The notes beneath the pieces were generated by a model, which saw only the letters and a program-made list of their open reading frames with translations, was not told where the DNA came from and did not search any database. Shown piece by piece: positions 8,871 to 57,195 of a stretch of DNA of 64,000 nucleotides. This stretch comes from Marsupella aquatica (Eukaryota > Plantae > Marchantiophyta), in assembly GCA_973895155.1 (NCBI GenBank), contig OZ316893.1:18604857-18668856 (forward strand), in the 5' to 3' direction. Each line of letters starts with the position of its first letter. Positions within the stretch are counted from its first letter, which is position 1. A program made the translations under genes and the position numbers.

Positions 8871-9053
8871 GAAAGGAACCCAGGTAAGATTGCAATGTTG
8901 TTAGTGCTTTACTAGATTTTGTGGACGCTACAGCTTGGACTAATTTTTCACAGAGAACTACTTTTAAATTTTATTTCATTTATAATACTCTATTTAATCT
9001 TTGTACTCTTATTTATCTATTCAAGTGTGCAACTCTTCATAGCTCCAGCTTAC

Positions 9054-22473: not shown

Positions 22474-24590
22474 GTCACGATGTTGGACATATGGCAAGGT
22501 TGTCAAAGGCCATGGGCATGACTCTTGCAAAAACTCGTGCCCTCGTTGAACACACCTTGACCCAAACATTAGGATCATCCAAATCCACAATAGTTGCCAC
22601 ATCACAACGAATAATAGTTAGCAAATCTGGCTCTCTACCATAGAGCAAGAAATAAGGTGAGAAGGATGCAAGTGATGCTTGTTGACTGAAACAATAGCCC
22701 ATAGCTAACCAAGGTAGCTGAAGATCCCAATCTCCCAAATGATCAACCTGCAAGCCATACTTCCGCAATCCTCTCTTCATAGTTTGTACAACTCTCTCTG
22801 CCAATCCATCTACCTCAGGATGATCACGAGACGTAGTACGATGATCAATAAGAGTTTGCTCACACAAACCTTTTAAATTCTCCATGGAATTTTGTGCCCT
22901 GATCAGTCAACACCTCAGCTGGTGCTCCAAAATGACTGAGTACTCGATCCAAAATTGTGATAGTCACTCCTCCACTAGCTTTATCTGGCAATGCCACTAG
23001 TTCAATCCACTTGGAGAAGTGCTCCACCATAACTCCATCGATACCCCAAACCCATGATCGGTAACAAATGCAATTGGGGAGTGGGAGCATTAAATGATAC
23101 TCTCACTCGATCACATACCACACACTTAACTATAAATTGTTGGACATTGGTGCACATACCACGCCACCAATATTGTGTTTGCAACAAGCTATACGTGCAC
23201 TCCACACCAAAGTGACTCAACTCTTGGTGCGCATGTCCCACCAAACGTACTCATTGTGACGGTTTTGGTACAACCAATACTTTGTCATCACGTAGTATCC
23301 TCAAAAGATGGTTTCCTTTCCATTGAAACCTCTTGGCTTGTTGTAGAACCCTATCTTGCTCCTTAGCATCACAATTGCCAACAATGGAGCCACCATGCAA
23401 ATATTCCAACACTCTCTTGTCGTTATGAATATTTTGCTGTCCAAAAATTATCTCATCAACATCCATATCTGAAGACTCAATGTCTACCACATCCAATGAA
23501 GTAGAGTCCACAGATCCACTATATGTTGGAACCCAACAAAGAAAGACAGATGCATGCCATCCTGGCACACTCTCCTTCTGACTCATCATGTCATCGAGCT
23601 CCAGTCTCATCCTCTTGACTGGTACATGGATTATAGCTCAATTTATCCGCATCCAAGTTCACTTTACTAGGCCTATGTACAACCTAGAAATCATACTCTT
23701 GTAACAACAATGCCCATCGTGCAAGCTTCCTTATAAGCTTGTTAGACTCCATTACCACTTGAGGGGCTGATGATCAGTGATCAAGGTGAATGGTTCACCA
23801 AACAAATAGCAACGTAAATGTGCCACAACCCACATTGCTACCAAATACTCTCCCTCATATGAGCTATACTTAGCCTCTACTAAATTGTTTGATCTACTAG
23901 CATACACCACAACAAACTCATTCCCCTCATCATCCTTCTGAGTCAACATATATTGCTCCAAGTCCTACTCCACTCCAATAAGTGTGTAGCTAAAATGGTC
24001 ATCCCAAAATGGGTCTTCTCAAAATAGGTGTTGATGCTAGTCTTTCCTTCAACTCTTGGAAAGCATGCTCTTGGTCGTCAACCCAAATCCACTCCTGATC
24101 CAACTTAGTGAGTATGGTTAAAGCTTAGCAAGGTCGCTAAATCTTTTAACATATCGTCTATAATAGCTCACCAATCCCAAGAATGCACAAACTCTACTCA
24201 CATCAATAGGACAATTAATATTTGTAATGGCCTCCACCTTAGTCACTTGCACACCCAATCCTCTTGGGTAGATAGTGTGGCCCAAATACTCAATTTTGTC
24301 TTGGAAGAACGTACATTTGCCATGATGGAGTTTCAACCCATGTTCTCTCAATCTCTCCAACACAATCTACAAGTGCCTCTGATGTTCTTCCACAGTAGAA
24401 GAATAGACCAAAATATCATCAATGTAACATCTCACAAAATCCAAACCTGCAAGAATTCGATCCATGACTCTTTGGAATTCAAATGGTAAGAACAACCAGT
24501 GATACAAACGATCTTTGCCATAAGAATCAATTCCCCCAAATGTTGTCTTGGATATATCAAAATGCCTAATTGGCAACTGATGGTACCCCA
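22474..24590 (-). mobile_element. Partial second copy (RT-RH-INT) of the DNMT/PHD Gypsy family
   Basis: Near-collinear with 42370-44490: CYIDDILVYS, TQKDDEGNEFVVVYASRSNN, HQEL..HFG..YWW..CVVC, VLTDQGT, GLAERVVQT. Cut at ~24590 by an L1, so no DNMT or PHD is present here. Confidence 0.9.
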
Positions 24591-27587
24591 CCTAGATGGC
24601 TAGGAATAAGTCGGCGGATGGGGTCCTCATAGTTGAGAATCCCCTATTCCAAGATCACAGCCTGAACCTTGTGGAAATGGAACCCACCCATACACATCTA
24701 ACAGTCCAAGAGAGCCCGTAGACAGGAAGAGCTGAGAAGGAGAATGCTTCAATCAAGACTCTTTGCACAGGGTAGAGCTTTTAGGCTTGCGTCAGCTAAT
24801 GCTGACCCACTAACGGTAGCCGCTAAGAGGAGCAAAGGGAACCAACGAGAGATTACGTCTGATGCACTTGGAGGAGTGACTGAATGGGTGACACCTCCAA
24901 CTCCACAAGCACAAGTGCATACTTCAGAGGCCAATTCCCCAAAACAACTACCTTCCAATAACAATGCAAATGATCTATACTCCTTTCATGGGGACACAGA
25001 TGCTGAAATGTTAGAATATGAGGAATATATCACACATAGTCAAATCAAGTCAAGGGCTAGGAAACAAGACTTGAGGTCTCCAACAATAGAGTAGAAGGAG
25101 TGGGAGAAAGCAGAAGGTAAAAAGCAACGTGCTTTGAGTTTCTCACACAATGCAGGGAAGGAGATGGACAAACATGTGGCATAACCGAATGTGGGACTAC
25201 ATTCACCACCCCTCCCATGAACCAGAACTGGCAGCCAGGAAAACTTTCAGGAATTCAGGGGAAGTGGATGGTGATACCTATTGCCTCACCTGGACTTTAT
25301 AGTCACGATGCTCTCAGACACGCGGGAGCTAACCCCTCACCTGGACTTTATAGTCACGATGCTCTCAGACACGCATGAGCTAACCCCTCACCTGGGAGCC
25401 GTCTTTGGATATAATCAGGTAGCAAGGCCACAGGCTTTCAGCTTTACACTAATGGATAGAACATTAAAGATAGCCTTGTGGAATGTGTGTGGGCTCTGCA
25501 AGCCAAACAAGAAATACACAGTTCAAAATTGGGTGAGTTCTTTAACGGATTCACTTGGGATTTACATTACAAGAAGTCAAATCAGATCAATTTAGACTCA
25601 ACATTGCACTCCGGGCAATTCTACCATTATACTAGCATTATTCAGCAAAACCGGATGAAGTACGTGGGGGAACGGCCTTATTGGTTCACCCCTCACTAAG
25701 GATCATAACATCGGGTAAACTAGCACAGGAGAAGCAGTATGGGTAACAATTGAGCTACCCACTTATATCCTGGGTGTTGCAAGCATTTACGCTCCAAACT
25801 CTCCAAGACTAAGACCTTTACTCTAGCATTCATGAATTAAAGTAGGAGCTGCCACAAGCCAACTGGATACTGTGTGGAGATTTCAACATGATGGAATCTT
25901 GTGCTGACTCATCGGGTGGCGCTTCTCTACTTAAAGGCCAAGAAGTGGAGTTTTGGAGATTCCTACAAGTCAGACTGGATTTGATCGATGCAAAAGAGCT
26001 TAGTCAAGGCATAATAGGGTCATGGTATACTTGGAGAAGGCTTCGAAACAATGCTTTGACACAATCAAGACTCGACCGTTTCTACATTAGCAATCAGGGC
26101 TGGTGGCTGGAGGGTATGGTCAAGTTGATTACGCATGAAGGTGGTACTGCCCTATTGGACCTCGACCCTGTTATTGTAACTTTTTGTCTACAACGGGAGC
26201 AAAATGAAGATGAAAGAGGTAGAGTAAAGTTTTTTAAATCAAATCTGTCTATTTTATGATCAAGAGAGAATATTAAGTTGTTAGAGGAAGCGTGGCAGCC
26301 AGGGGGAGCTGGTGAGAGGGACCTGCACCTTCGGGTTTCCAGAGCAAGTAAAAGTATGAGGCAAAAAATATATGGAGATCCAAGCTACTCCCCGACAAGC
26401 AGTTGAAGAGATGAACTTTCTCAGGGAGGAAGTCAGGGCCCTAAAAAACACTATAGCGGAGGAATACTTTGAGGCAAATTAAAGCTCTCAATCTTTTTTG
26501 TTAGAAGACAAGCTACATGCAGCAAAATTTGAGGAAGCATGTATTGCAGGAAAATGGCGAGAGTGAAATGGCTGGGAGAGGGGGAGGAATCTACTAAGTT
26601 CTTTTTTGCAACAGTCAAGGCTAAACAAGAAAAAGAAGCCATGCGGGCCTTAGAAAAGGAGGATGGTACAATTGTGACAGGCGGGTAGGAGATATTGGAT
26701 TGGAAGAAGTAGAAAGGTTCTGCATGGAGCTCTATGCTCCCGACTCCCCTTCCCGGCAAAACAGCTAGTAAATTGAAGAGATAGAGACAAACTTTTGAAG
26801 CATACCAGGCATGCATTCACAAATGGAGAACTCACTCAAATGGAGGCTCTCCCTACTCTGAAGGAAGTAGAGGACGTAATTGGACATCTCCCTTTGGATA
26901 AGTCCCCTGGAATCGATGGATTAACAGCAGAGGTATACAGAGGTTGCTGGCATTTTACGAGGGCGGATTTCATGAGCATGATACATGATTTTTGGTTAGC
27001 AAGGAGGGTGGCGGCGAAGATCAAAGATGGTTTGATCAAATTCATTCCTAAAAAAGTGGATAAGCACTTTCTTAAGGACTGGTGACCCTTACCTATCCTG
27101 AACATGGCTTATAAGATTTTGACAAAGATTGTGGCTTTAAGAATCAAAAAACTTCTACCCCGCTTCATTATTTCTCAACAAACTGGCTTCATCCCAAATA
27201 GAAATATACTTGAAAATATTTTGCTTGCATGGCTGATACAAGAATAGGTGAACAAACGGTAGGTGGAGACTCTTTTTACTCAAACTAGATTTTGAGAAAG
27301 CTTTAATTTGATAGAGTAGACCATAAGTATCTATGGGAAACTATGCGACTCCTGGGGTTCAGTGGCTGGTTCACCAAGCTAGTGCGGGCTCTACTGTCTA
27401 ATGCTTCCTCCCAAGTCTACGTTAATGAGAGATTGAGCTGCGCTATCGAGCTTAGGCGGGGAGTTAGACAAGGATATCCTCTCTCTCTGCTTCTTTTTGT
27501 GATCTCGACCCAGCCACGCATGGATTTCTTGGATGCCAAGCTGGCAAGACATAGGCTTAGCGGTATCAAAATATCTGAGCCAGTGCC
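24591..27587 (+). mobile_element. L1-clade LINE fragment (ORF1 tail + ORF2 EN/RT), decayed
   Basis: The ORF1 tail EMLEYEEYITHSQIK parallels EMSEYEEYISKSQLK at 59033-59482. ORF2 motifs IALWNVCGL, GDFN, SRLDRFY, KSPGIDG, LDFEKA, GVRQGYPLS. Includes a 51-bp tandem duplication at 25284-25394. Confidence 0.9.
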
Positions 27588-34037: not shown

Positions 34038-34371
34038 TCTATCCTTGGAGCACAATTCTTAATTTTTCCTTAAGCAATCGATTTAGTGAACCGATGTGCA
34101 CATTTCGAATTATTGATTGAACCAAGGATCAATTTTTTTTTCTCAAACGACACCTTGAAGGATCAGGAGCGCTGACATCTGAACACCGAATACCCACATT
34201 GAAATTTGCTCTTTGATCAATACGAGGAAGTTTCTTCTTCACCGTTTTCTTTCCATTTGAATTTCTTAGACCTCAATGCCACAACTGATTTAAAGAATTC
34301 AGGCAGAGCATAACTCACAAATTGCTTGATATAACTCGATTTGAGATCCTATCATCATAACTTCCATCACC

Positions 34372-37300
34372 ATGAATTCGATAGAGAAGCTTCAATTTAA
34401 GGCTCTAACTATTGATGGTGCCAATTATTTATCCTGGTCACTTGATGTCGAAGCATATCTTTACTCAAAAGACCTACAGGACACTATTTTAACCGATGCA
34501 GGCCTAACATTACAGCAAAAGGCGAGAGCATTAATCTTCATACGCCACCACCTTGCAGAGCCACTCAAGATTCAATATCTCAATCAATACAACCCCCGAA
34601 TTCTTTGGGAAGATCTCAAATCACGGTTCGATCACATGAGCCTAGTCTCTCTGCCGGCCGCACGCCACGACTGGATAAATTTGCGTGTACAGGACCACAC
34701 TTCTATATCAAACTACAACGGAGAACTTTTTCGCATCACCTCTCAACTCGCAATCTGTGGCCACCCAGTTAATGACGCCGAGCAGATTGAAAGAACCCTA
34801 TCAACGTTCAGTGCCGGAAATCTCATCCTTGCATCCCAATACCAAAACATGGGTTTTACAAAATATTCCGAGCTAATTGCTCATATGCTTCTTGCTGAGA
34901 AGCACCAAATACTCCTACTGGAAAATGCAAAATCTCGCCCACCAGGTATAGCCGCTCCACCACCCAAACCTGAAATCAATTTCAACAGACAAAATGATAA
35001 GATCCGAGGCAGAGGACGTGGCACATTCAGGGGGAGAGGACAACGACCATTTATCAGAGGCAGAAACCAACAAAGGGGCAGAGGCTATGGACAATTCCAT
35101 AATTTGGAATATCAATCTTCTGGACATTTTTATCGAGGAAGAGGACAACGTGGACGAGGTAATGGATACAGAGGCAGAGGCCATAGCGGAGGCCGTGGCC
35201 GAGGACCTAATAGTTGGACCAGAGAGAACGAAAATCTGACTGAATGTTTCAGGTGTGGCACAAAGGGTCACCTACAGAAAAATTGCCGATCTCCTGCCCA
35301 CCTGGTCCAACTTTATAAACAAAGCATGGAATTACCTAGTAATGAAGCCCATGGAAACTATATGGAAACTATAGATGATATTGAGGGATATGCACCAGAA
35401 GTACATACTGCCCAATTAGGAGCTAATCCCTCTATGCTCGACGATCATCACAACTGTATTGTCGATAGCGGCACATCTCATTCCATCCTACGCCATAAAG
35501 ATTATTTCCTACGTATCACTCCATCCCACAGATCCATGACAACCATAACTGGACCTAATCATATAGAGGAAGGTTATGGTCCAACACAAGTCAGATTCCC
35601 CAAGGGTACAATTCTCCACATAGACTCCGCCATTTATGCTCCGCGGGCTACTCGAAACCTGATAAGTTTCAGTGATATACGCGCCAATAAATTCCACATT
35701 CGTACAGAGACATGTGGCAACCGTGAGGTCCTACATATCCTGGAAAATACCACATCAGGGAGATTAGTGCGAGAGATACTCCCCATATATCCCCCAGGAC
35801 TCTACATCACCCGAATCTATTCATATCATGCTACAAGTACTTCATTGACTTTAACACAAATATGGCATAATCGCCTTGGACATCCTGGTACAAGTATGTA
35901 CCACAATATACTTAAGGCTACCGTGGGCATACCTAAAGGCGTTCACCCATCTGCTACCAGCAAACCCTGCCTCGCATGCTCACAAGGAAAAATGGTTACC
36001 CGTCCCTCACCATCCAAGACAATACATCAGATACCACAATTTTTGGAGAGAATACACGCTGATGTCTGTGGCCCCATTGACCCTCCTTCTGGCCCATTCC
36101 GATATTTCCTAGTTATCATTGATGCCTCTACTAAGTGGTCACAGGTCTCCCTGATCTCTACCCGTAACCTGGTCTTCCCACGAATATTATCGCACATATT
36201 GAAATTAAAATACCAATTCCCAAAGAATCCCATCAAAACCATTAGAGTTGATAACGCGGGGGAATTTACCTCCAAAACTTTCGATACCTTCTGTGAAACT
36301 ACAGGTATCAATACAGAATATCCGGTTCCACATGTTCACTTTCAGAATGGTCTTGCAGAATCCATAATCAAACGAATACAGATGGTGGCCAGACCTCTCC
36401 TGATGCAGTCAAATTTACCAGCATCAGCTTGGGGCCATGCGGTCCTGCATGCAGCTGCCCTGATTCGACTGAGACCGTCCTCATTTAATACACAGACCCC
36501 ACATTTTCTAGCATATGGATTACCACCAGACATCACACATCTATGAATTTTTGGCTGCCTGGTACTTGTCCCAATTTTAGGTCCCAAGAGAACTAAAATG
36601 GGACCTCAGAGACAGCGCGGTATCTATGTGGGCTTTGACTCACGCTCTATTATAAGATATTTGGAACCTTCCACAGCAGATGTTTTTAAAGCACGGTTCC
36701 AAGACTGCCATTTCTTTGAAGACGATTTTCCAACCCTTACAGAAGATCCCAAGAGAAATGGCGATGTACCAGTGAAAGACTTACAATGGTTGTCTCCTCG
36801 CCTGCTTACAGAGGACCACCGAACTAAAGAAACAGATCTGGAAGTACAACATGTTCTCCACTTACAACAGATGCTTATGAAACTTCCTGATGCATTCAAC
36901 GATGCAGCCACTGTCACTCGCTCACACATCGAAGCAGCCAACATACCAGCTCGAATTTCTCGGCAGCCTACACCAGCCACTCACGCTGCACCCAAGGCCA
37001 AAAGAGGACGCCCACTGGGATCCAAGGACTCTCATCCAAGACAGTCCCGCACGAGTGTAGCTAGCTCGTCCATGTCCCACCATTACACCAACCATAGAAC
37101 CATCTTCACAAGGACCAGCCGATAATGAGGAGATCACAATTAATTACGTACATACCGGGAAGATAATGCAGTGTGATACAATCCGAATTGATGATATCTT
37201 TGCATTCCAGATTTCCGAGGACATTATCAATACAACTCCTGATCCCCTAACCATTGCTGAGGCCCGAACTCGCCCGGATTGGCCACAATGGGAGCTAGCT

Positions 37301-39055
37301 ATCAATTCAGAACTGGACTCCCTAATCAGACGAAAAGTTTTTGGGCCCATCATTCCTGCACCTGCCGGACTTCATCTTACAGGATACAGATTTATTTTTG
37401 TTAGAAAACGAAATGCGAAAGGAGAAGTTATCAGACATAAAGCACGCCTAGTCACGAAGGGCTATACCCAGATCCCCGGTTGGGACTTTGATCAAACATA
37501 CTCTCCTGTCATGGATTCCATCACATATAGATATCTTATTGCATATGCTCTTATCCACAAACTAGTAATGCATATTTTAGATGTGATTACTGCCTATCTA
37601 TATGGTATCCTTGATACCAAAATTTATATGAAGGCACCCCCCGAACTCATCAAGCGATTGACGTTTCACATTGAGGGGGAGAAAACCGGTAAACTAAGCC
37701 CAGGTCTACAACCTGGAGTACAGCAAACTTGTCCTACAGGCAATTTGACTTCAGTGACGGTTGAGACTGGACCTTTAGTCCCAACCACACAAGATGTGCT
37801 ACACACATCCGCTCAGAGGAAACGAATGTCTTCCTCACAGGTTACCCCTGTTACACAAACAAAGAAAGTTAAAAGAGAACTTGCAGTTCAAGTACTTCGC
37901 TCTCTATATGGTTTAAAACAGAGTGGGCGGACCTGGTATAAACGCTTCAAAGCTGAAATGATTGCACTGAATTTTATTACTGACGATATTGCCCCTTGCC
38001 TATTTCTCAAACAGGACGGAAATGAATTCGTCATTATAGCAATTTATGTTGACGACATCAATATTTTTGGCACAGCAAAAATTACAGCTGACACAATAGA
38101 CATCCTGAAGAAGATATTCGAGATGCGGGACATAGGTAAACCCACCTATTGCTTGGGCTTACAGTTTAATCACTTGCATCATGGCATACTCATTACTCAA
38201 TCTACCTATACTGAGAAAGTATTAAAACAGTTTAACATGGAGACTGCTTACCCTGTTAGCACTCCTATGGATTTGAGATCCTCAGATCCTGCAAAGGATA
38301 CATTCAGGAAATGGACTGCACCAGAAGCCATTCTTGGCCCAGAAAAGCCTTACCTCTCAGCAATCGGGGCTCTCATGTACCTGGCTACACAGTCCCGTCC
38401 TGATATCTCTTTTGCAGTCAATCTTCTTGCACGCCATAGTGCCAAACCCACTATTCGTCACTGGAATGGCGTAAAGCGAGTATTCCGTTACCTGCGAGGA
38501 ACCACAGACCTGGGACTATTCTTTCCCAAGCAGTCAGAAAATCTATTGGTGGGATATGCAGACGCAGGATACCTTTCAGACCCTGACGATGCAAAATCCC
38601 AGACGGGATATGTTTTTCTTCAAGGAGGTACTGCTATCTCCTGGAGAAGCTACAAACAAACATTGACAGCTACTTCGTCCAACCACGCGAAAATCATTGC
38701 CCTCTACGAAGCCACTAGGGAATGCATTTGGTTAAGAAACTTGATGGATCATATTCATACACACACAGGGAACTCTCGTTTGGATAAACCTACGATTATC
38801 TATGAAGATAATCGACCCTGTGTCGATCAGATAGTGCAGGGTTTTATCAAAGGCGATCGTATTAAACATATAGCACCTAAATTCTTTTATACACGTGAGC
38901 AGCACGGCGGACAGGTCAATGTACAGTGGATTCCTAGCAAGGAAAATCGAGCAGATTTATTTACGAAACCACTACCATCATCTCTCCACAGAGAACATAC
39001 ATATGGTATAGGCATGAGAAGCATGACCTCACTGCTGCAGGGCATCGATAGATAA
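34372..39055 (+). pseudogene. Copia gag-pol polyprotein with one premature stop and one frameshift
   Basis: Motifs GANYLSW, CFRCGTKGHLQKNC, CIVDSGT, WHNRLGHPG, IHADVCGP/RVDNAGEF/NGLAE, YVDDIN, YADAGY..IYEDN..ADLFTK. TGA at 36544-36546 (HL*IFGC, expected CGA Arg). Frame change near 37075-37100, before NEEITINY. Confidence 0.93.
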
Positions 39056-40487
39056 ATCGGAACTGCCATTATTGATGCAGCGCATTCATGAATATCTCAA
39101 CATTTCTTACACACAGGCTACAGTTTTGAATATCTATAGATAACCAGCGATATACTCTACTACCATTCTGTCACTCAACATTTGACTTATGCTCATCCGC
39201 AAGCTGAATAACAGAGCCGAGCTCAAGATATATCTACAAATCAAGAATCGAGAGAGATAGACGTCAACTAGCAACCAACTCATTTTTGCACTTAATCACA
39301 CATAAGCGCAACATCTTCTTACCGTCCGAGCTTTATTGATTATGACCGAGTTATTGCACCGAACAAACCAAGCGCAGGACAACGCCAAACTCCAGGACCC
39401 TGGGCGCACAACCGCGAACAACGGAAGTAGCAGTAGTCGACCCCAACAACGACTCAATCGCCACTTCTCGACTCAACTTCTCGACTCAATAGCCATCCAC
39501 ATTCTACCTCAGCACTGCCGCGCAGCAACATCTGATCACAGAGCAATCTTCGATTTCCCGTTCCCATCGATTACCTCGAAGTTCAAGCTTCAGCTCACGA
39601 AGGAGACTATCGAATGCATACCTAGTCTGTAAACTTCTTTTTACACTTAGCCTTACACTCAATAGTCAATAGAACTTAGATTTACTTTTACAGATACAAA
39701 CTACTTATCGTTATAATTCTTTGATATATTTCATTTTTGGCCTTAGACCATGTAATAGTAGTGGCACTCTTCCCATGATTGAAGCATGGTTTTAATGAGA
39801 CCATACTACACTTTGGCCAAATAATAGACATATCATTACAAGGGTTAGTTTTTCCCCATACTTTTATGGTTGTTTGAAATATTTTTCATTCAACCAAGGG
39901 GGAGTGTTATAAGGGACAAAACCCTAACCCTACTTACCCTAGAACATAGGAGGTTACATAACCGCCATACCATGTACTACATAGGGAGAGATTTCCACTC
40001 CCACAATGTAATGAAGGAAGTGAGCTTGCTGGTGTATTGAATGTCCATGATTAATCCATTTTTTTTTTTTTAATGTTTTGAATGTAACAAACATGTTTTG
40101 TGGATAGAATGCATAGTCTTTTGAAAACAAGAAAACTTGTGAATGGTGTGAAATCCTTAAGGATGAGATCAAATAAGCATAAATGTTGTTTAAAAATAAA
40201 AGATAAAGAGAAAAGTTGATAATTTAAATGAGTAGTTGTCATTTTGGAGAAAACTAAAATTTTCTAGTTAAATCATCTGTTATTAGAAAGACACCTTAAC
40301 AAGACTCATTAAGAAGTAAAATAAATGGAAAGGACAATAATGCTAGTTTGAAAACGTTGAACATGAAAGAGAAATTAATGTTAAGTAGAGCCTTTTAATG
40401 AAATTTGAGACAACATTAAGGGAATTGATCATATGAGTTGATGATAAATGTAAACTGAGTTCCTAAGAGTTAAAAAGGCCATCTTTT

Positions 40488-41157: not shown

Positions 41158-41765
41158 TGTTGTGCGCATAAACATCGCTACACAACATACATTGCTTGTC
41201 ACACATATCTAAGCATAGTCACAATCAACATCACAAACATAAGAGAATGGAGTACAAGTGGAACTCCTATCCACACATGTCCAAAACCCACAATGAATCT
41301 TCAAGAGCAATTAAACAGCAATTGATGCCAATCAAACACAAAATCCTGTCCGACGCGATCACACACTTATGTCAAGCCAAATGCACCTTGCGCCTCAAGG
41401 AATCCACATTATGTACACACAACCTAGACAACCACACCATAGCCGCTAGAGCTTGTGCTCAAAAGGCTCAACATCAAAAGATGAGCCCTTTGAGCCAACA
41501 CAAAGAGATATATAACTATCCCTCACAAACATACACTAACCCTAAAACACTTAGATAACACACATATGAAAGCCTCAAACCTACATAGTTCGATATCCTA
41601 TACTACCACTCATATTGGTGTGACAACTGTTGTGCGCATAAACATTGCTACACAACATACATCGCTTGTCACACATATCCAAGCATAGTCACAATCAACA
41701 TCACAAAAATAAGAGAATGGATTACAAGTGGAACTCCTATCCACACATGATTGTCCAAAACCACA
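41158..41765 (-). repeat. 3' LTR of the DNMT-Gypsy, with a ~135-bp direct repeat at both ends
   Basis: Begins TG on the minus strand at 41765, just after the PPT. Repeats at 41158-41292 and 41628-41765 are each bounded by TG..CA. Confidence 0.7.
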
Positions 41766-41942
41766 ATCGTCCCCCCTAGCTGGGAGTGAGTTCCCCTAAC
41801 TCTAGCTAGTCATAAGTTCTACAAGGTTGATATACACCTTTTTAAGTGTGGAGATCAAGAGATCGGGTGCAAGTGAGCCCCATCGATCACCTTCCTGCAA
41901 TCTATACCTTCCATGAGAACACCAAATGGTAACTAGTCGGCT

Positions 41943-42090
41943 TCACTGACATTGAGGACACAACCATGATTCACTAGGGATCACCTCTAATGGTGGTGTC
42001 AAACACGACATGTGCCATCCTCTAGAACACTTATCACAAATCAACATAGTGGCTGCTCCTTGAGCAGATCCACACAACATACACTTCAAA
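41943..42090 (-). other. PHD finger (C4HC3) at the integrase C-terminus
   Basis: CMLC-x10-CDKC-x4-H-x2-C-LTPPLEVIPSESWL-CPQC*: all eight zinc ligands and the conserved Trp are present. Confidence 0.93.
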
Positions 42091-44938
42091 CCGGCACGAA
42101 CATGAACTAAACTTGGATCTACAATACCATCAATGTTTGAAAGATGCATGACATGGTGCACAATTGCGCACATGATCCTTCCAAACCATATCATCACGTC
42201 CTTCCAAGATTAGGACACTAGAAGATAACACTTCACGCACACGTAAGATTATCTGACCTACAGTCACATCAAGTGTCGTTGGTGCTGTTTGCTGCAAATA
42301 AACAAAATCACCAGGATGAAACCGTCAAATCCTCGCACGATAACCTTCTCCATGAATAGTGGCATACCTCAAAGTATCACAATGGTCATGTTGGGCAATG
42401 GCAAGGTTGTCAAAGGCCATGGGCATGACTCTCTCAAAAACTCGTGCCCTTTCTAAGCACACCTTGACCCAAACATCAGGATCATCCAAATCCACAACAA
42501 TAGTCACATCACGACAAATAGCCGTTGGCAAATCTGGCTCTATATCATAGAGCAAAAAATAAGGTGAGAATAATGCAAGTGATGCTTGTCGACTGAAACG
42601 GTAGCCCATAGCTAACCAAGGTAGTTGGAGATCTCAATCTCCCAAATGACCAACCTGCAAGCCATACTTACGCAATCCTCTCTTCACGGTTTGTACAACT
42701 CTCTATGCCAATCCATGTGCCTCAGGATGATCACGAGAAGTAGTACAATGATCAATAAGAGCTTGCTCACACAAACCCTCAAACTCTTCGCGGAATTCCG
42801 TGCCTTGATCAGTCAACACCTCAGCTGGTGCTCCAAAATGACTCATTACTCGATCAAAAAATGTGATAGCCACTCCTCCACAAGCTTTATCTGGCAATGT
42901 CATTAGTTCAATCCACTTGGAGAAGTGCTCCACCATAACCAAAACATATCAATTATGACGTTGGGTAAGAGGTAATGGACTAGCAAAGTCCAAACTCCAT
43001 CGATATCCCAAACCCATTATCGATAACGGATGCAATTGGGGAGTGGGAGCATTGAACGATACTTGCACTTGATCACATACCACACACTTAGCGATCAATT
43101 GTTGGACATCAGTGCGCATACCACGCCACCAATACTATGTTTGCAACAAGCTATATGTGCGTTTCACACCAAAGTGACCCAACTCTTGGTGCGCATGTTG
43201 CACCAAACGTACTCATTGTGATGGTTTTGGTACAACCAACACCTTGCCATCACGTAGTATCCTCAAAAGATGGTTTCCTTCCCATCAAAACCTTTTGGCT
43301 CGCTGTAGAACCCTATCTCGCTCCTTAGCATCACAATTGCCAACAATGGAGCCACCACACAAATATTCTAACACACTCTTGTCGTTATGAATATCTTGCT
43401 GCCCAAAACTACCTCATCAACATCCAAATCTGAAGATTCAACGTCTACCCCATCCAATGAAGTAAAGTCCATAGATCCACTATGTGTTGAACCCAACAAA
43501 GAAAGGCAGATGCATGCCATCCTGGCACACTCTCCTTATCTGACTCATCATGCCATCGAGCTCTAGTCTCATCCTCTTGACTGGTACATGGATTTTGGCT
43601 CAACCCATCCGCATCCAAGTTCACTTTACCAGGCATACAACCTGGAAATCATATTCTTGTAACAACAATGCCCATTGTGCAAGCTATCCTGTAAGCTTGT
43701 TAGACTCCATTAACCACTTGAGGGGCTGGTGATCAGTGATCAAGGTGAACGGATTACCAAACAAATAGCAACAGAAATGCGCCACAGCCCACACAGCTTC
43801 CAAACACTCTCCCTCATACGAGCTATACTTAGCCTCTGCTGAATTGTTTGATCTACTGGCATACGCCACAACAAACTCATTCCCCTCATCATCCTTCTGA
43901 GTCAGCATTGCTCCAAGTCCTACTCCATTCCAATCAGTGAGCATGCTCTTGGTCGTCACCCCAAATCCACTCCTGGTCCAACTTAGTGAGTATAGTTAAA
44001 GACTTAGCAAGTTGGCTAAATCGTTTAACATACCGTCTATAATAGCTCGTAATCCCAAGAATGCACAAGCTCTACTCACATTAGTAGAACGAGGAATCTG
44101 TGTAATGGCCTCCACCTTAGTCTCTTGCACACCCAATCCTCCTGGGTAGATAGTGTGGCCCAGATACTCAATTTTGTCTTGGAAGAACTTACATTTTCCA
44201 AGATGGAGTTTCAACCCATGTTCTCTCAATCTCTCCAACACAATCTGCAAGTGTCTCTAGTGTTCTTCCACAGTCAAAGAATAGACCAAAATATCATCAA
44301 TGTAACATCTCACAAAATCCAAACTTGCAAGAATTCGATCCATAACTCTTTGGAATTCAACTGGTGCATTCTTCAACCCAAATGGTAAGAACAACCACTG
44401 ATACAAACAATCTTTGCCATAAGAATCAATTCCCCAAAATGTTATCTTGGATCTATCATAATGCCTAATTGGCAACTAATGGTACCCTGCCTTGAGATCC
44501 AACGAACTAAATATTTTTGCATGCCCCACAGCATCAAAGATCTCCTCAGGTGTGGGCATGGCATATCGATCAGATTTTTTTTGACGATTAATAGGTCGAT
44601 AATCACCACACATTTGCCTATCTGTGTAATTGCCATGCACATCCTTCTTGGTTGGCATCACTGTGGCAGATGCATACTCCTCGTATGAGATCTCCACCAA
44701 ACCAACCTCCAACAAATCCTAAGTTCTACTCTGGATCAAAGCCCTCTCCAGGTCACTATACCGATACGGTCGTCGAAAGATTGGTGCATCACTAGCCAAT
44801 TTGATCTGAATACCAGGGCCCTTCAATGTCCCCAAATCCTTCATACTAAACGCAAAACAATTCCAATAACTCTTCAAGAATTGATGCATGCAACATCTCT
44901 CCCTCCCGGTCAACTTAGGACCAATCTGTGGTTCCCAA

Positions 44939-45125
44939 CTCTCCATCAAAGCGGTGACATCTTCCTTTGGAGTTGAAGAGGCTACAAGCCATGGGCTGTG
45001 ACTCTCCATCAAAGCAGTGGTGTCTTCCTTGGGAGTTTAAGAGGCCACAAGCCGTGGGCTGTGACTCTCCATCAAAACTGTGACGTCTTCCTTTGGAGAT
45101 GAAGAGGCCACAAGCCGTGGGTTGT
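44939..45125. repeat. 63-bp x ~3 coding tandem repeat in the DNMT-RT linker
   Basis: ctccatcaaa starts at 44941, 45004 and 45067. Each unit encodes approximately HSPWLVASSTPKEDVTALMES on the minus strand. Confidence 0.9.
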
Positions 45126-45339
45126 GGATGGAAGAGTTAGTTGCTCGTTGATATTTATCAATGGTTTGAGCAACCTCCTTTTGCTCAGCAATTTGTTTTG
45201 CCTTGGCCAATCTTCCATAGGTCCATCAATCGTCTGCTCGCCCCCAACTGTGGCTGCTACTACCTCGGTAGGCCGCAAGCTCACCAATGGACGATCTGTA
45301 AAATTAGAAGTGCACATTTGCAATTGTTCAGCTAATCCC

Positions 45340-46290
45340 AAGCTGATAATCCAAGTCAAGCAATTCAAATCCATGGCTTGACCAAGGACTTGACAACGTG
45401 AATGCTCCAACACCGAGGCCATTGCCGTGGTGCTAGTCAAAAATCCCATAGCCCGCTCTCTCTCATTAGCGGTAGGTTCTACTAGTTGTTGTAGAGTTGT
45501 ATCCCACACAAGTCTAGGGCCACCTGCTCAAAATGCGTATGAAGCGGAATGACTCACAAAAGTGGGTAATGCACAATGCGGACGCCCATCTACATTCACC
45601 ACTGCCAATGGGGGTCGATCAGATTGGGTAATACTTTGTGCACGACGCCCTGGATCCAAAATACCATCCACCACTAAGGTTGTTGAGCAAGGTACACCAT
45701 CAAATGCTCGCTTCAAGACCTCACATGGTAACAAATTAGTCCACCACAATCGTGGATGACGCACACGAGAACCTACATGTGCAACATTCAATAACATAGC
45801 AGGTCCAATCCAAGAACCTGATGAACACTAGCAACAATTTGATGACAATCATCACCCAATAATGGCACATTCTCCAAAATGTATGTAGGAGAATGTGTCT
45901 GATGCATCTGGAGATGGCGCAACACACGTAACATCTCCCAAAATAATGTTGATCTTGGATCATGAAATCCATGTCCAATTCCAACCCAAGATTGACCTTG
46001 ACATGGCCAACCCGCAATCACCAAATCAATGGAGCCAACACGATCCAAATGATCCGCCCCCAATAATGAAATATTAGTAGGCAATGCATGCTGATATCCA
46101 CGAACGGCATCCACTGGCAACAATTGTGGATAACGTTCCACCAACATTGCTACATGACGTGGGATCCTCCGTGTTATTTCATCATTTTCCATGTACAAGT
46201 AACGACGTACAGGAACTCCTGCTTGAAGAACAACAACCAATAAATTTAGTGCTAATCCCACCAAAGAGATCCAACAAAACAAATACCCTC
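45340..46290 (-). pseudogene. DNMT3-like C5-cytosine DNA methyltransferase domain inside Gypsy pol (frameshifted)
   Basis: Motif I LLDLFGGIST (46248-46277), II YLYMEND, IV IDLVIAGWPCQG (PCQ 45998-46006), V DPRSTLFW, VI YILENV (ENV 45866-45874), VIII GSRVRHPRLWWTNL, IX EPTANERERAMGF, X VLGQAMDL, all in canonical order. Confidence 0.92.
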
Positions 46291-48655
46291 CTTTGGATAC
46301 TGCCATGCAATAGGAGTGGTATCCAATGGTGAAAGGGTCACCGGTCCATTTGCAAAAGAATGTTGTGATCCTGACTCCGGTGTGAAAGCATGACGCCATG
46401 CATCATGTATCAATTGGGCCGCATTTTGTTGCAAGGCCTCTCCAGTACCCCATACTGGTGCCACAATAGTATCAACAGGTGATACACGCATCATGTGTTC
46501 CTCACGTGGCTCCTCCATTGTCGGAACATCTCCTGCATGTGCGTTTCTTTCAATCAAATCATCAGATCCAGTAATCAAACTACTGAATGCTGCCAAAGAC
46601 AATGGTGTAGATTTAGGACCTCCCACAAATCCACTAAATTGCATTGGCAATTGGCTCAATCAAGCATCTCCATAGTGCCAATCGGGTCGATATGACACCA
46701 ACTCATCCCAAAAATCAAGAACAAATCCCATAGGATAAAGTATTGTACATCCCACTAACACATCATATGACTCAGTCTTAGTCAAAATAGCTTGAGCCTG
46801 GATCCGTGAGCTATCCTTTGGATGATCCTCTTGAATCCTAAGTTCAAGTGCTTGTCTAGTGATATGCTGTTTGGGTGTAGATCCTCCCAACAAAGTCTAA
46901 ATGGGAAAGGGACACTCCTCCAAATCATTTGGACGCAATCCCAATCCTTGTATTGCAAACTTACCCAACATCAAGGGCTGAGCACCAATATCCAATAACA
47001 CTTGTTCTGGTTGGTATATCACTCCAAAAGGCCCAACTAATCGGAAGATACCACTCCAATTATCTAATGATACTACACTAGGTTTAAACCTAGTTCTCTC
47101 AAAAGCAGGGCATGCTGGTAACTCCATCAACCTCGCCGCTGCTGCTTGCCATGTTTCACCACTAGCAATAGGTGGAATCAACTCCACAACTTCAGATTTA
47201 TGCATTGTCTCTGCACGAGAAGTAACAACTGGAGTGTCTTCACATAATGTGGCCACCAATCTGAACACTTAAGGTGGACTAACTCCCAATGCCAATATAT
47301 CTGTTGCTGAAAATAATGGGGTGCGCACAATATTAGTGGCCGCCCACAAGGTGCTTGCTAGCCCTGTTGCAACATCATCTGATTCTACCAACTTATCAAC
47401 ACTTGGATTTGTCTTAACCGGGTTCATAGAGGTAGTGTGAACCACCTCTAACAACGTAAATGATTGGGGAAGCTTCGTTTGACAACAAGCCTCCCCCCTT
47501 TGAGGATCCAACTCTACCATTGCTCCTCGGGGCTCAAGGGCTTTGGTTGCTCCTTAAGTCAAAGCTGCCAATGCATCAACATGGGCAGTGCCACACATGA
47601 ATCCTATGGTGGCCAAGTCTCTGTCAGCTCCATAAGATGTAGATTGAAGCTCCATCACCAGAAGTAGGTCTAACCTGAGAACTGGCCATGGTAGCTAGTT
47701 GTTGCTCCAATTGAGCAATCTTTGCATCCTTTGGATTTATGGTAGTGGTAGGAGCATCACCTCCTTGTCTCCCTGCATGTGGCATACCTCGGCCGTGACC
47801 ACCACCTCTACCTCCTCTTCCCTGCCCGCTTCCCTGATCATACGTATGCGATCCTCCCCGTCATAGTTCAGGATGGAGTATAAAACACCTATCCTTGGTG
47901 TGACCAGAAACTCCACAATGATCACATAATCGTTGATCGGGCATAGATGCCCTTCGGACCCTCTATTATCCGAGCAATATCTTTGTGCATGATCCCCACC
48001 ACAAGTCCAACATCCTCACTATTGTCCAGCATAGGAGGGCACAGGTCTCTAACTAGTAGATTCCCGTGTTGTAGGCTTCTCCCTCTGGCTCTTCCTTGCA
48101 GTAGTGTGACACGGGTAACGTGTCACTTAACCGAACGCAGGTCATAGATTAGGTCTTATACGGTCATTAGGACCGTAGCCGTAGCGTAGAATAGCACGAA
48201 TAGCTGTCTTTTGCCATTATGAATAGATTAGGAGTAGGTTAGTTGACCAAATGATTATGAATTAAGGAAGAGGATTATTACGCTCGACCGAGGTACGGTG
48301 GTGGCAGCGGAGTAAAAATCTGTTAGAAGAATCACGCTTGGACTGAGATGCCAATTTCAGCTCATTATCAACGACCAAAACGGCCTGGCCCTCTCACGCT
48401 CGAGCTCACCCTGGCACCTCCATAAGAGAGGAGTCGATGGCATTGCGGGCCATTTGCTCATTTCTACCTTTTGGAATTCGCGGACGCTGCCATTTTCTCG
48501 CCTTCTTGCTTGAATCAAGCTGACCTTTACAAGGAAATCATCGAGGGATAAGAGCGGGTTGTGGCGAGATTTAGTCAGGGCGAGGAAGGCCTCCACCAGT
48601 AAGCGGACCGAACAGCGGGAACGCGGACTCAAAAAACCGGACTACAAAGGTTAGT

Positions 48656-50924
48656 ATGACCCTTACAGCCTTGGGATTTTGGACCTTGTTTGGCGAGGTG
48701 GGTGCTAAGTTCTCCGAGACTTACTGGTACTCTTGTCCCCAGAAAGCCGCTTATGAACGAAGATACGCGAAGCTGGTGGCCAAGGTAGCACAGGTTAATT
48801 GCGAGAAGACAACCATCACCAGAGATTCCAGCTACAACGAGCTGCGAGACTACATCACCGAGCTATATCTTAGCGAGGAAGGGCTTAGATCGGTAGCAGA
48901 GGCGATTCTTGAAGTCCTCGCAAAGTTCTTTAGGCTGAAGGGCAGCCAGCGGCTTACTCAAGCGGAGTTCAACAAGATCCCAGGGTACCTAGACCAGCAG
49001 ATTGCATCCAAAAAGCACCAAGAAGACATCAATAGACAACGAGAAGTGATGCGTAATCTTACATTCCTCGGGGAAAGCTCCAACGCCTTCAACTGGGATA
49101 TGGCTACACCAACACCACCGGCGTACCACCAAACCCATCCTAAGTCCATCCCGTGAACAACACCGAGTGTTCTTCGGGTTCCGAGCGAGTTAGTCCGCAT
49201 CTTGAGCAGCGTTCTCATAAGCAGGCAAGAACGACGCCGGCCCCCGAATCGACAACACAAACCAGCGCCGCTCCTGCACCTGCCCCGACAAACCCCCCGG
49301 CCAACCAGACCCGACGGCCCCCGGATAATCCCAAGTCTAACTTATTATAGGTAATCCGCGTTCCCGAGGTAGTCTGGATCGCAATCAAGAAACTTGACCA
49401 CGCGGACTATCTCAAGGAGCATCAGTTGGAGCAGTTCGCTCACTTGCTATGGAGACCGTGCGCGGCCGAGCCAAAGGAGATTTGTGAGTTCATCTCCAAT
49501 TTCGACACCGACGCATCGACCACTAAGGTTTCAGGGCAGACCTTATCACTCACGGAGCATCGGTTAGCACAGATCTTCTGCCTGCTAACCAGGCCGGTGC
49601 CGATTGAACTCCGAATTTGGGATAAGGAGTATACACCTCGGCACTTCAAACCCGAAGGTAAGACGGACAACGGATACAAGCAGGGGTCGTGCACCAACTT
49701 CATACGGACTACCCTACACATGATTGAGCCACGATCCGAGATTCCCTCTACACGATCGTGCAGGTGGAACAGTACAAACGGCAGAACTAGGCCCAATTCT
49801 TTTACCGAAGGTTCTCGGGAGAGCTTAAGCGGGCTCAGGGAGGTATGGCTATCGGGGGGAAGACTTACCTGGGAAGTCATATCGCCATCATCCTCGCCTG
49901 GTACAAGGCACGGCGGGAGGCCAGGGGAAAGAATATGGCCACCTCAGCCCCGACTAATGTCACCCCCGCTACGGAGGAGGCTACCCCGAGCAAGCAGACT
50001 ACCTCACCTCGGGCAAACGCCGAGCCGGAAGCCCCGACTAATACTCCGTCACCTCCCCAGGTTGAAATTCCGCCGCCCCCTTCTGTTGAGCCTCCGCTAC
50101 CCCCAGTACAACCACCTCCAATTCCTCCACCACTTGAAGAAACCTTCCCCTTCCCAGCGCAGACTATGGAGGAGCTCGTTGCCCCGCCTGAGGAACCACC
50201 GGCACCCGAGAGGATGGAGGACTACCAAGTAGCCCCAGGGACCATGGCCTACGACCTGGTCCAGAAGTTTAGTCAGACTCTATCAGGGGAGCTAGCGACG
50301 TACATCGGACAACAAGTCTCGGCGTACTTTCAACCAGCCTTCTTCATGTTAGAGCATCAACCATGGATCATAAGCCGCTTGGAAGAAGAACTCATGGCGA
50401 AGGGGAGTGAGATCGGATGCCTCTAAATGCTGGTAGAACACCTCGAGAAGGAGGACACTACCCGTCGTGAGGAGTTAGTCCGCACCGTTGAACAGCGGGA
50501 CGGACTAACCCAGGAGTGAAGCAGGGTGCAAGCGGATCTCAAGAAGCTGGACAACACCGTGCTTCAGTTGCGATCAGAATCCTCGGCTCGGGTTACCAAC
50601 CTGACCAACCTCAACAACTAATTCCTACAAGCGGCTCAGCAGGTAGCTAGTGTCTTCGCCGAATGGGATAAATTGCTGACGCAGGACCAGACCCATCGCG
50701 ACTCCATTAACCAGCTCAACCTGGAGATAGCACGGCTCCAAACAGAGGCCGATGAAGCTGCAAACGAGGCTGAGGAGGCAGTGCGGGACAACAAGGCCTT
50801 ACAGGACCGCATTACCCTGCTCGTCCTCCAGCGGGGAAGACCTGGGCCCACCTCTGATCAAGGCGGCTTGAGGTCTCGCCCCGACAAAGGGACAAACCCT
50901 GGTCTGACCACGGCTCGCACGTAA
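48656..50924 (+). pseudogene. Accessory ORF(s) upstream of gag: putative plant-transposon-protein-like domain + Pro-rich linker + coiled coil
   Basis: EICEFISNF..TTKVSGQTLSLTEHRLAQIFCL resembles the LVREFYAN..VRG..I..LGL signature of Athila/Ogre-type extra ORFs. A heptad-rich region lies at 50360-50820. Broken by stops. Confidence 0.55.
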
Positions 50925-53900
50925 GGGGTGGTTAGCAAAGGGAGGAAGCAGGCGCCGCGCAAGGCGGTTGAGTCAGCGACATCTTCTAGTTAGGCGTAAC
51001 GATAGAATAACTGTCATTAGGCGCCGATTAGCGGCACAGTAGGAAGAATTAGGACCGGATCAGTTAGGATCAGCCAACGTAGGATAGAGTCCATCAATGG
51101 ACTAGATTTTGGTCAGTAGACTTAGCTGCTGCCATTCCGATCAGCGCCCTTGTCGTCAATAGTCAACCGGTCAGAGGAGTGCGGCCGGCTAGTCAGAGGG
51201 TAGTTAGTCAGTAGGCATTACCCCCGAAAGGTAGTATCTTCCGGTTCCTTTCTGCAACCATAGTATTTAGGCTCTCCCTTCCGTTGTGGGAGGGGGAGAA
51301 GGCATAGTTATCTCAGCGTAAGGAAAGGCGAGGCACGGGGAGTCCCGGCCTGAGTAGGGTCAGAGCGCACCAAGGAGTGAGAGCCAGAGTCGAGCTTGCT
51401 GGGCAAGTGCGGGGCGGGGCCTCGTAGAGACTGGGCATCGACTGCCGTTGGGCCTGCTGACCCCCTTAGAAGTCGAGTCAACTATGTAAACTGATTCTTC
51501 GTTGAGTAAATGTAGTCTTTTCCCTCTAATGTTTTCGCGAGTAACTGGTGTTGTGTGTATGCTTTGTCTGGGCAAAGGCGCCATTTCAAGGAACGTACCG
51601 GGTGCGGACTAATGGTAGGGATTGCCACCCATTGCATGTCATAAGGTTCTGTCGTGTCGATGGCTTGAAAGCCCCAAGCCGGGAGTTAGTCCGAGTCACT
51701 AACTGTGGGAATATTCCAGCGGTGGAAAACAAATATACCTATGACTAGTACGAGTTGCGCTACATGGAGGGGGCACTCATTTTGCCTTACAAGTGGAGCC
51801 GTGTAGTGAGCTATGAACCTTTGATTTTGTCCTTAACGTGTAGGAAGGGGCATGCCCCTTACCCGATCACGTTCTGCGTATTTACAACAACCAAACGGAG
51901 CATCAAGTTTGGCAGGAAATACCGCATCTGGTGGAGCGGGGAGCTCGCCTTCCCGAGCAGGATCGCTTATTGTGATGGGAACCCAAGCACCAACGGTGGG
52001 AGGAACTCCACCGGTTCCACCAGCCCCACAGGTACTAGGTGCGTTGCGACCCCCTGCGGCCAAGAACGTGTCACAATGATCTTGGTTCCACTATCGACCC
52101 TTCAAGGGACGACCCACGGATGACCCCGATGAATGGATAGTTGAGTTTGAGGCCACAGCCAAGGCAAATGGCGAGGAGGCCATTAAGCTAACCATCCTTC
52201 CAGGCGTGCTACGAGGAGAAGCGCGCCCGTGGTTTAACTTGCAACCCCCCGGCTTCACATGGGGCCAGTTCCAGACGGCGTTTTTGCAAGAGTTTAGGCC
52301 CGTGGGGATCAAATCTTGGGCCATGTAAAAGATTGGACGAATGCAGATGGGTAAGCATGACTCACTTCGCAAATTTCTGTAGAGATTCCAGAAGGTTGCC
52401 GCCAAGATTCGGCCTAAGCCCGATGACTCCCTGTTGAGGAAATGGTTCGTCAACACGCTACCCCAGAGAATGGCGTTCTCAGTGCTAGAAAAGAAGACCA
52501 CCACTCTACAACAGGCAATTGATAGTGCCGAATCCTTCAGGGAATCGCACTATGCCTCTCAGCTTAATAGGAGGACCAAGCATAAGAAGAGTAGGAGGAA
52601 TCATACATTCAGCGATTCCGACTCTGAGTACGACGAGAAGAAAAGGAAGAAAAGACGCCGGCATAAGAAGAAGGGCCGGACAAGCTCTTCATCAAACTCT
52701 GATTCAGAGTCTAGTGATTCCCTGTCCAGCAGCCCGACGTCAACTGGCTCATCCTCCAGTGATACCAAGTCAGAATCTTGTAACCACCGAAGGAAGAAGG
52801 GATCACGGTTAGATGCGGGTAAACATAAACCGCGATCCAAGGTCGTCACCACAGACCACAAGGCCGCGGAGGTAGAAAAGCTGAATGAAATCACAGACCG
52901 GCTGAAAGCACTATCGGTGCACTTGGCGGAGAAACCGCCCGACAAAAAGAAACCACCGGAAATCCGAGCGCATGCTTGGTGCTCCAAGTGTTATCAGTCT
53001 GGACACGTGGTGCAAGAATGCCCAAGGTGGAACACTTGCGTGCACCAGATAGAGTTGGAGCCCGGACAGTCCGAGCCAGAGGGAAGCACAATGGAATACT
53101 TCTTCGAGGATCCGGCTGAGGCGGTGTTCCAGATGAGTATGACGGGACCTCGCACCCTAAGCGGCCACAATCCCGGGTTCCATACCCCTTATCCGTATGC
53201 TGTGAATGGGCATGGCCCCCAGATGATCAGCAATCCAAGTATTCCGCCTAAACCCAGAGTTTGGCGGACCCCGGTTTGCTATAATTGCGAGAAACCTGGT
53301 CACTTTGCCCGAGAGTGCATGGAGTAACGGAAGCAAGGGGATGGGAGAGCGATTCCATTGTGCCACGTCTATCAAACCGAAGCACATTCCATGTCAAACT
53401 GCCCCTTGGTGTTAGCCGCGAAGGCCGACGCCGTCCGAGCTACTCTACCTGTGGCCCCACCGACTACGGATGCGGTAGTACAAATGGTAACGTTGGAATG
53501 GCAGGATGATTCCACCGAGTGGATCGATCTCATAGAAGCAGTCGAGCAACCGGGAGCGCACGCGGACAACAAATGTTACCACGTTTCTACCCGATCATCC
53601 TGCAAGAAAGACAAGTATGAAGCACGGGCTCAGAAGAATGACAAGCAAAGAGACGTGGCGGCAGATAACCATAGTCCGATGGAACCGGACGAGCGGGAAG
53701 ACTACCAACAGGATAACCCAAAGTTGTTTTACCCGAGTAGAGGAGCTAGTCAAAAAGCAATTGGAAGCCTACGAGGCCCAAGAGCACAAAAAAGCCATTA
53801 AGAAGGATATTGCCGATGCTAAAGCGGCCGAAAAAGCCGAGGAAGCTAAGACTGCCTTGGAAGCTGAAGTCAAGGGAGCAGAAGCATTAAAATCTGCGAC

Positions 53901-56900: not shown

Positions 56901-57195
56901 AAGAGCGGAGAAGAGCGGTGAGAGCGGTGAGAGCTTGAGCATCTCACATTTGCGTTCTGGGTTTACACAAGTTTAAGATTTTTGGTAAATACGTCGTCGG
57001 TCTCATTGGATCCAGGACCGTCAGAGCTTTTTCTCGACACCTTTTGCGCTGTGATAGATTGCATTCAGACTAACTTTTGAGCATTTGAGGTAGGACGATG
57101 CTGTAGCGGAGTCTCTGGTCTTGGTAGTCTCAACACAGACATTCGTTATGGTCCTTGGATCCTTTGCACTCCCTATTCTGAAGCAACATTGAACT

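Follow-up and report, generated by a model that had tools for sequence, protein, structure and literature searches.

Analysis of a 64,000-nucleotide stretch of the Marsupella aquatica genome (contig OZ316893.1, positions 18,604,857 to 18,668,856 of the forward strand; hereafter the window) revealed a decayed Ty3/Gypsy retrotransposon on the minus strand that carries a cytosine DNA methyltransferase (DNMT) domain. This DNMT is a fixed part of a high-copy Gypsy family and no one-off capture, and the family most likely represents the branch of the KnitGypsy-Dnmt3 lineage found in land plants, because its DNMT groups with those of Klebsormidium nitens and Closterium. Pfam profiles and tblastn gave the domain order gag remnant, aspartic protease (PR), DNMT, reverse transcriptase (RT), RNase H (RH), integrase (IN) and PHD finger; the protease had no Pfam match on the window fragments. 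The window copy is dead, as the initial annotation had stated, with three frameshifts in the DNMT (two around motif I, one near 45813), one stop near 45530, further stops in RT, and a motif VIII that reads RHPR where relatives have HRPR. The 5' half of the element is absent from the window: truncation at approximately 48104 has removed repeat A1 at the 5' end and all gag sequence beyond the remnant, and another sequence, starting with TG on the plus strand, begins at 48105. A second, truncated family copy in the window breaks off within RT and is uninformative on DNMT presence.

Searches with a 153-aa piece found 40 homologs at 35–78% identity, the named ones from Marchantia polymorpha, Calypogeia fissa and Sphagnum. 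Many of the named bryophyte relatives lie on chromosome-scale contigs of 1–30 Mb, which places the family in embryophytes as had been proposed. In Marchantia, more than 10 annotated gene models are elements of the DNMT-carrying family. DNMT, RT and RH stand within a single annotated model in the homologs P0013 and P0017. RT lies at most 2.5 kb downstream of DNMT in 55 of the 57 sequences holding both domains, which were drawn from the window and 77 metagenome loci selected by DNMT motif. The same position in dozens of loci from several genera makes the DNMT a family trait. In a run set not selected for the motif, four of four public runs with the host family gave 3,543–11,470 contigs along the element, with DNMT-bin depth similar to RT-bin depth (depth being no copy number).

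Among 104 stored proteins with both domains, the DNMT stands before RT in 16 and after RH in 88. Closterium is among the named members of the first type, and the profile of this group found two K. nitens gene models (KFL_005250035 and KFL_005910020); named members of the second type are chlorophyte (Scenedesmus, Chlamydomonas eustigma, Cymbomonas and Monoraphidium). Chlorophyte Gypsy-PHD elements with a related DNMT between RH and IN were also observed (P0082, P0233, P0234, P0235, P0240 and L073:1281-5656), and other relatives, P0060, P0122 and P0244, have extra domains: a Tudor domain after the PHD finger, a G-patch, and a DNMT-like domain with type-1 RNase H without Gypsy domains. P0296 and P0297, labelled Daphnia and Amoeboaphelidium and located on contigs of 1–2 kb, are probably algal contamination. 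A scan of IMG/VR gave no match. The literature searched, which covered few subscription papers, yielded no paper naming bryophyte or chlorophyte members and no chlorophyte Gypsy-PHD element with a DNMT; two later papers, in their available parts, say 'streptophytes', possibly already covering land plants, and supplements of published work may already list bryophyte members.

Analysis of the domain indicated a DNMT3-type enzyme. The profile search suggested in the initial annotation matched PF00145 (window:45788-46402:-, E 2.1e-11), and every motif named there was found, in canonical, non-permuted order. No introns are evident, since tblastn cover is contiguous in the window and the polyproteins P0216 and P0317 are continuous. 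Comparison of the Calypogeia homolog P0010 with solved structures ranked DNMT3A/B best (E 8e-11), followed by DRM2 (2e-4) and HhaI (3e-3), and its Atlas structural neighbours by predicted fold are DNMT3 clusters (template modelling score 0.75), both in agreement with the DNMT3-type reading made earlier from the motifs. An AlphaFold model of P0001 was poor (mean predicted local distance difference test score 45.5) and was not used. Relative to DNMT3A, P0010 has an insert of approximately 18 aa between motifs II and III. Of 229 near-full domains in a redundant set, no fewer than 207 retain the motif IV Cys and 214 have HRxR; the catalytic Cys, EN/EM and RxR are kept in chlorophyte and streptophyte members alike. 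The plant host DRM was rejected as a candidate, as DRM has a permuted motif order and the window domain a canonical one.

In a DNMT tree of 90 of approximately 184 domains, with a Scenedesmus element as the root, the two K. nitens gene models, Closterium and the bryophytes form one clade with a support of 100 (most likely from the Shimodaira-Hasegawa-like approximate likelihood ratio test), and the window copy falls inside the bryophyte clade (100), with Calypogeia as the closest named taxon (95.7). This nesting is the basis on which the window was assigned to a land plant. With the KnitGypsy identity of the two gene models assumed, the DNMT clade and the repeat layout make it very probable that the family belongs with KnitGypsy-Dnmt3. 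The initial annotation had suggested that the lineage persisted in or re-entered embryophytes; because the Klebsormidium, Closterium and bryophyte DNMTs form a single clade, persistence appears to fit better and re-entry less well, in trees that hold no host DNMT3 outgroup. Comparison of DNMT and RT distances gave a Mantel r of 0.86 (n = 40; maximum of 999 permutations 0.32), in line with the expected congruence of the two trees, and a 64-sequence run gave 0.78. Correlations of this type are inflated by the shared ancestry of related sequences; the 64-sequence set had partial RT pieces, and the redone set of 40 keeps about half of the chlorophyte-type sequences. The correlation shows long co-residence, not strict co-descent. 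Between subfamilies, the DNMT appears to be under purifying selection (proportions of nonsynonymous differences [pN] 0.24–0.27 and of synonymous differences [pS] 0.67–0.71, the synonymous sites being near saturation).

The layout of open reading frames (ORFs) was examined at the boundary between DNMT and RT. An in-frame stop lies 14–17 codons upstream of RT in 24 of 26 anchors, always followed by CAA (TAG in 15, TAA in 9), and DNMT motif X lies upstream in the same frame in 15 of the RT anchors. Many stored proteins of approximately 1,250–1,450 aa extend from the zinc knuckle to 70–150 aa beyond motif X and then end. At position 45151 the window copy has TAT, and other host copies have TAG at 97–100% of depth in all four runs. 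The predicted ORF1 is Gag-PR-DNMT and the predicted ORF2 is RT-RH-IN-PHD. The DNMT is located between the protease and RT, as first described, but it ends ORF1 and does not lie inside one pol or RT ORF; likewise, the earlier suggestion that it is packaged with Pol does not suit the bryophyte clade, in which the stop separates Gag-PR-DNMT from RT-RH-IN. Because it ends ORF1 ahead of the stop, the DNMT is probably made at the Gag level and would be as abundant as Gag. UAG-CAA is a leaky stop context, and read-through is favoured because a diverged subfamily keeps TAG-CAA with no ATG nearby downstream. The unnamed relatives P0050, P0216, P0332 and P0340 have a single continuous ORF instead, which in P0216 is intact and encodes PR-DNMT-RT-RH-IN-PHD.

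A PHD finger was found in 15 of 25 long polyproteins scanned, and the Pfam scan found no chromodomain at the integrase end, where the PHD finger stands instead. The nearest solved PHD fingers are those of CHD4, KMT2D, DPF3, ATXR5, PHF21A, KDM5 and UHRF1. PHD fingers of the CHD4, DPF3, PHF21A, KDM5 and UHRF1 type mostly read histone H3 unmethylated at K4.

The 3' end of the window copy consists of a polypurine tract (PPT), repeat B1, 2 nt, repeat A2 and repeat B2, so that the terminus is B-A-B and not a plain long terminal repeat (LTR). A plain LTR of 608 bp (41765-41158) was rejected, as the 5' ends of full copies lack B. In each of three runs, approximately 20 contigs with unrelated flanks start at this same 3' end. 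Full relatives have the form A1-internal-B1-A2-B2 (L038 and L053/L063, the latter two being one insertion), and B1-A2-B2 ends occur in the window, L062 and L067. The spacer between B and A is 2 nt, giving the junction CA-NN-TG. An exact 4-bp target duplication, directly flanking A1 and B2, was found in 7 of 9 distinct two-ended insertions, with one mismatched and one lacking it. Directly downstream of A1, 11 nt are complementary to a site 31 nt past the TATA box in A and form a likely self-priming site: at least 10 of the 11 nt match in 11 of 21 A1 copies, duplicates included (10 at the post-TATA site), against 6–8 for 63 control 11-mers. TGG, as in a transfer RNA (tRNA) primer site, follows A1 in 0 of 21 copies, half-tRNA priming not having been looked for, and the window holds no tRNA genes. 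With the PPT ahead of B and the priming site behind A, ordinary reverse transcription would be expected to produce an LTR composed of B+A.

Opening a two-LTR circle at the internal B|A site would produce exactly the integrated form A-internal-B-A-B. If the cut at CA-NN-TG were staggered, the 5' overhangs would be 2 nt long, as is typical of integrase substrates. We consider that integration through such a circle, opened inside the LTR, may have occurred, with a chance slightly short of even; the literature searched offered no mechanism for the split repeats. PAT-, Ngaro- and TOC1-type DIRS elements carry split direct repeats (A...B-A-B), and the repeats here could have been inherited through RNA, as proposed for PAT/Ngaro DIRS, or have been rearranged after insertion, without any two-LTR circle. 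This course would explain why no 5' A-B-A form is seen, why most A2|B2 junctions are precise, and why one insertion appears as B-A-B in L062 and as a single B in L027, its ends being rearranged or collapsed in assembly. We regard it as unlikely, in view of the duplications directly flanking A1 and B2, the position of the PPT and priming site, the filler DNA in one junction, and the lack of a tyrosine recombinase in 25 of 25 polyproteins scanned.

Taken together, a dead KnitGypsy-Dnmt3-lineage copy whose DNMT methylates its own new complementary DNA (cDNA) in the particle before integration is the whole explanation that we moderately favour. Transcription would start in A approximately 30 nt past the TATA box, and the first 11 nt would fold onto the sequence after A1 and self-prime. 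ORF1 would yield Gag-PR-DNMT in bulk and read-through at UAG-CAA would supply RT-IN-PHD, placing many DNMT molecules in each particle. Reverse transcription would produce linear DNA with B+A as LTR, the joined ends would form a two-LTR circle, and the DDE integrase would open it at the internal CA-NN-TG between B and A, generating A-internal-B-A-B, while the PHD finger would anchor the complex on tails of histone H3 that probably lack methylation at K4. New copies would thereby be methylated by the time they arrive. For the self-methylation of cDNA, by analogy with the proposal made for DIRS elements in the available parts of PMC5890265, the case is evenly balanced. The broadest claim, that of an ancient Viridiplantae lineage, abundant in bryophytes, with a de novo methylation kit (Gag-level DNMT3 and H3-reading PHD finger) and obligate circle integration that ignores linear cDNA ends, is offered tentatively and may well be wrong.

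The abundant DNMT might instead work in trans within the nucleus, its targets being insertion sites, host genes or rival transposons and not its own cDNA. Placement at the Gag level would give far more enzyme than one cDNA needs, and the PHD finger suggests chromatin engagement; however, the DNMT itself lacks a reader domain, the PHD finger belonging to the integrase, and the K. nitens methylome is ordinary for plants despite such elements, as far as the accessible text of PMC5890265 reports. We judge trans action clearly improbable. The domain might also be retained because it binds or protects nucleic acid within the particle, or because it methylates RNA, roles to which the insert between motifs II and III and the inactivity of the K. 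nitens domain in yeast (PMC5890265, in part) would correspond. The shared retention of catalytic Cys, EN/EM and RxR across chlorophytes and streptophytes argues for DNA methylation instead, as does the CG methylation in yeast by the related SymbioDIRS-Dnmt3 (same source, same extent), and such a role appears more improbable still. A single insertion of a host DNMT3 gene or retrocopy into the window copy has nothing but DNMT3 likeness in its favour and is practically negligible, given the shared position in dozens of loci and several genera, the intact P0216 ORF and the congruent DNMT and RT trees.

Several observations weigh against the cDNA self-methylation and circle explanation and its phylogenetic basis. 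In the 64-sequence run, 15 of 28 well-supported DNMT splits are present in the RT tree and 8 conflict with it, and the trees contain neither host DNMT3 nor K. nitens RT. In peat copies, the ratio of nonsynonymous to synonymous substitution rates (dN/dS) is 0.63 for DNMT and 0.46 for RT, and pN is near pS in the closest DNMT pairs, as in decayed copies. The K. nitens domain gave no methylation in yeast, a result that its authors call inconclusive in the available text of PMC5890265. Regarding the ends, a two-LTR circle offers two equivalent att sites, yet no A-B-A-internal-B copy was seen (B before A in 0 of 18 5' ends), compared with 4 B-A-B among 19 3' ends, of which 14 have B alone and 1 is cut by the contig end. 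One A2|B2 junction holds a 19-nt insert, and the self-priming 11-mer doubles as a hairpin arm inside A. The end structures were all read from metagenome contigs, in which repeats are liable to collapse; the A-B-A-internal-B form may have been masked in this way if short-read contigs collapsed the 338-bp repeat. Recombination or collapse during assembly can likewise yield single-B ends, because one insertion site was seen both with a B-A-B end (L061/L062) and with a single mosaic B (L027), and is counted twice among the 19.

Through this family, land plants are added to the hosts of DNMT-carrying retrotransposons. One of these plants is the laboratory model Marchantia polymorpha, in which the role of the cargo DNMT, a question left by de Mendoza 2018 (PMC5890265), becomes open to genetics. 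The Marchantia element gene models bear on DNMT counts and on the interpretation of methylation mutants, and, owing to its split ends, the family would probably escape LTR-finding tools. If the circle model is true, it would overturn the usual view of two-LTR circles as dead ends. Under the broadest claim, the family would be an LTR retrotransposon dependent on a circular intermediate, and Marchantia would harbour an uncounted source of de novo methylation.

The features of the DNMT element are collected below. The window also contains a near-intact Ty1/Copia element at 34345-39055 (+) between 158-bp repeats (33864-34021 and 39905-40062), probably a recent insertion because the repeats are 99% identical. 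A second Gypsy element on the plus strand (48105-57000 and 63500-63900) is nested in the gag of the DNMT element and seems in turn to be split by an L1-like element at 57.8-63.7 kb; we infer that the TG-starting sequence at 48105 is the start of this Gypsy, which has its genes at 52-57 kb. A multi-exon host gene at approximately 10300-14660 (-), two exons of which have no Pfam match, may encode a membrane protein similar to TMEM33 of plants. At 2700-7150, units of 17-19 nt and 35 nt form degenerate tandem arrays, and decayed ORFs at 27900-29520 (+), the last without a Pfam match, resemble a non-LTR element with C-terminal zinc finger and endonuclease.

Table. Coordinates of the DNMT-carrying Gypsy element and of a second family copy in the window
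Feature	Position	Strand	Basis or remark
gag 3' remnant (zinc-knuckle region)	47852..48084	-	tblastn of Marchantia P0006 aa 276-415; zinc-finger match
Aspartic protease, LLDIG at 46984-46998	46636..47010	-	motif; Asp_protease_2 match in intact relative P0216
DNMT3-type C5-methyltransferase	45340..46284	-	motifs, PF00145; 74-78% identical to P0001
DNMT motif I (ICFVG/DLFGG)	46257-46284	-	motif reading
DNMT motif II	46181-46204	-	motif reading
DNMT motif IV (DLVIAGWPCQ)	45998-46027	-	catalytic Cys kept
DNMT motif VI (ILENV)	45866-45880	-	motif reading
DNMT motif VIII (GSRVRHPR-LWWTNL)	45732-45773	-	altered
DNMT motif IX	45441-45464	-	motif reading
DNMT motif X	45366-45386	-	motif reading
ORF1/ORF2 stop site of family, then CAA	45151..45153	-	TAT in window copy
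Three tandem 63-bp repeats, linker ahead of RT	44938..45126	-	repeat scan
Reverse transcriptase, YIDD at 44293-44304, stops present	44068..44937	-	PF00078
RNase H	43636..43938	-	PF17917, E 4e-25
DDE integrase (H2C2, core, C-terminal part)	42130..43233	-	PF17921 and PF00665
PHD finger, integrase C-terminus	41946..42083	-	PF00628, E 6.5e-12
PPT-like run	41767..41777	-	precedes B
Repeat B1, ends CA; 2-nt spacer 41626-41627 next	41628..41767	-	93% identical to B2
Repeat A2, starts TG, TATA-like box inside	41295..41625	-	A1 = A2 identity shown in full relatives L038, L053/L063
Repeat B2, 3' terminus of element (CA)	41158..41294	-	93% identical to B1; contig starts in three runs
Second family copy, truncated (part of RT, RH, IN)	22480..24596	-	88-89% identical

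Comparison with known systems revealed the closest likeness to KnitGypsy-Dnmt3 of K. nitens, a Gypsy element described in the available parts of PMC5890265 as carrying a DNMT3-type, non-permuted, intronless domain under purifying selection. The window family shares these domain features and the location inside the retrotransposon coding region, and its DNMT is likewise under purifying selection between subfamilies, weakly so among recent decayed copies. The repeat layouts also agree, being DIRS-like by the figure legend with which ours was compared (Fig. 4c, PMC5890265): part of its review file has A1 and A2 enclosing the ORFs, and B repeats enclosing A2. In contrast to KnitGypsy-Dnmt3, whose DNMT lies in the ORF of RT and RNase H, the window family is high-copy, resides in land plants, and has a DNMT that ends ORF1 at an in-frame stop. 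The main text of PMC5890265 does not contain 'PHD', its main text and readable supplements do not contain 'Marchantia', and its available parts do not say by what mechanism the repeats arise. The window family is thus set apart from KnitGypsy-Dnmt3 as described by its host range, its ORF layout and its PHD finger. SymbioDIRS-Dnmt3, as presented in part of the same source, has a DNMT3-type cargo as well; unlike it and the PAT/Ngaro/TOC1 DIRS elements, the window family has a DDE integrase, 4-bp target duplications and a PPT, and no tyrosine recombinase. EpiLTRs similarly join a cytosine methyltransferase and a chromatin reader in an LTR element, but with a DNMT4-sister domain, DAM and a chromodomain in place of DNMT3-type and PHD, and their authors set them apart from Gypsy-DNMT3 (bioRxiv 10.64898/2026.05.21.726589, in its available part). 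Like the Tf1/sushi and Tcn1 chromoviruses (PMC6317226, in part), the window family likely self-primes without a tRNA primer site and has a histone reader at the integrase end, which is a PHD finger and not the chromodomain of Tf1/sushi, Tcn1 and Chlamyvir, and its ends are split. Finally, it shares with canonical Ty3/Gypsy elements the PR-RT-RH-IN order, DDE integrase, PPT and target duplication, and differs from them in lacking equal full LTRs at both ends and a TGG primer site.

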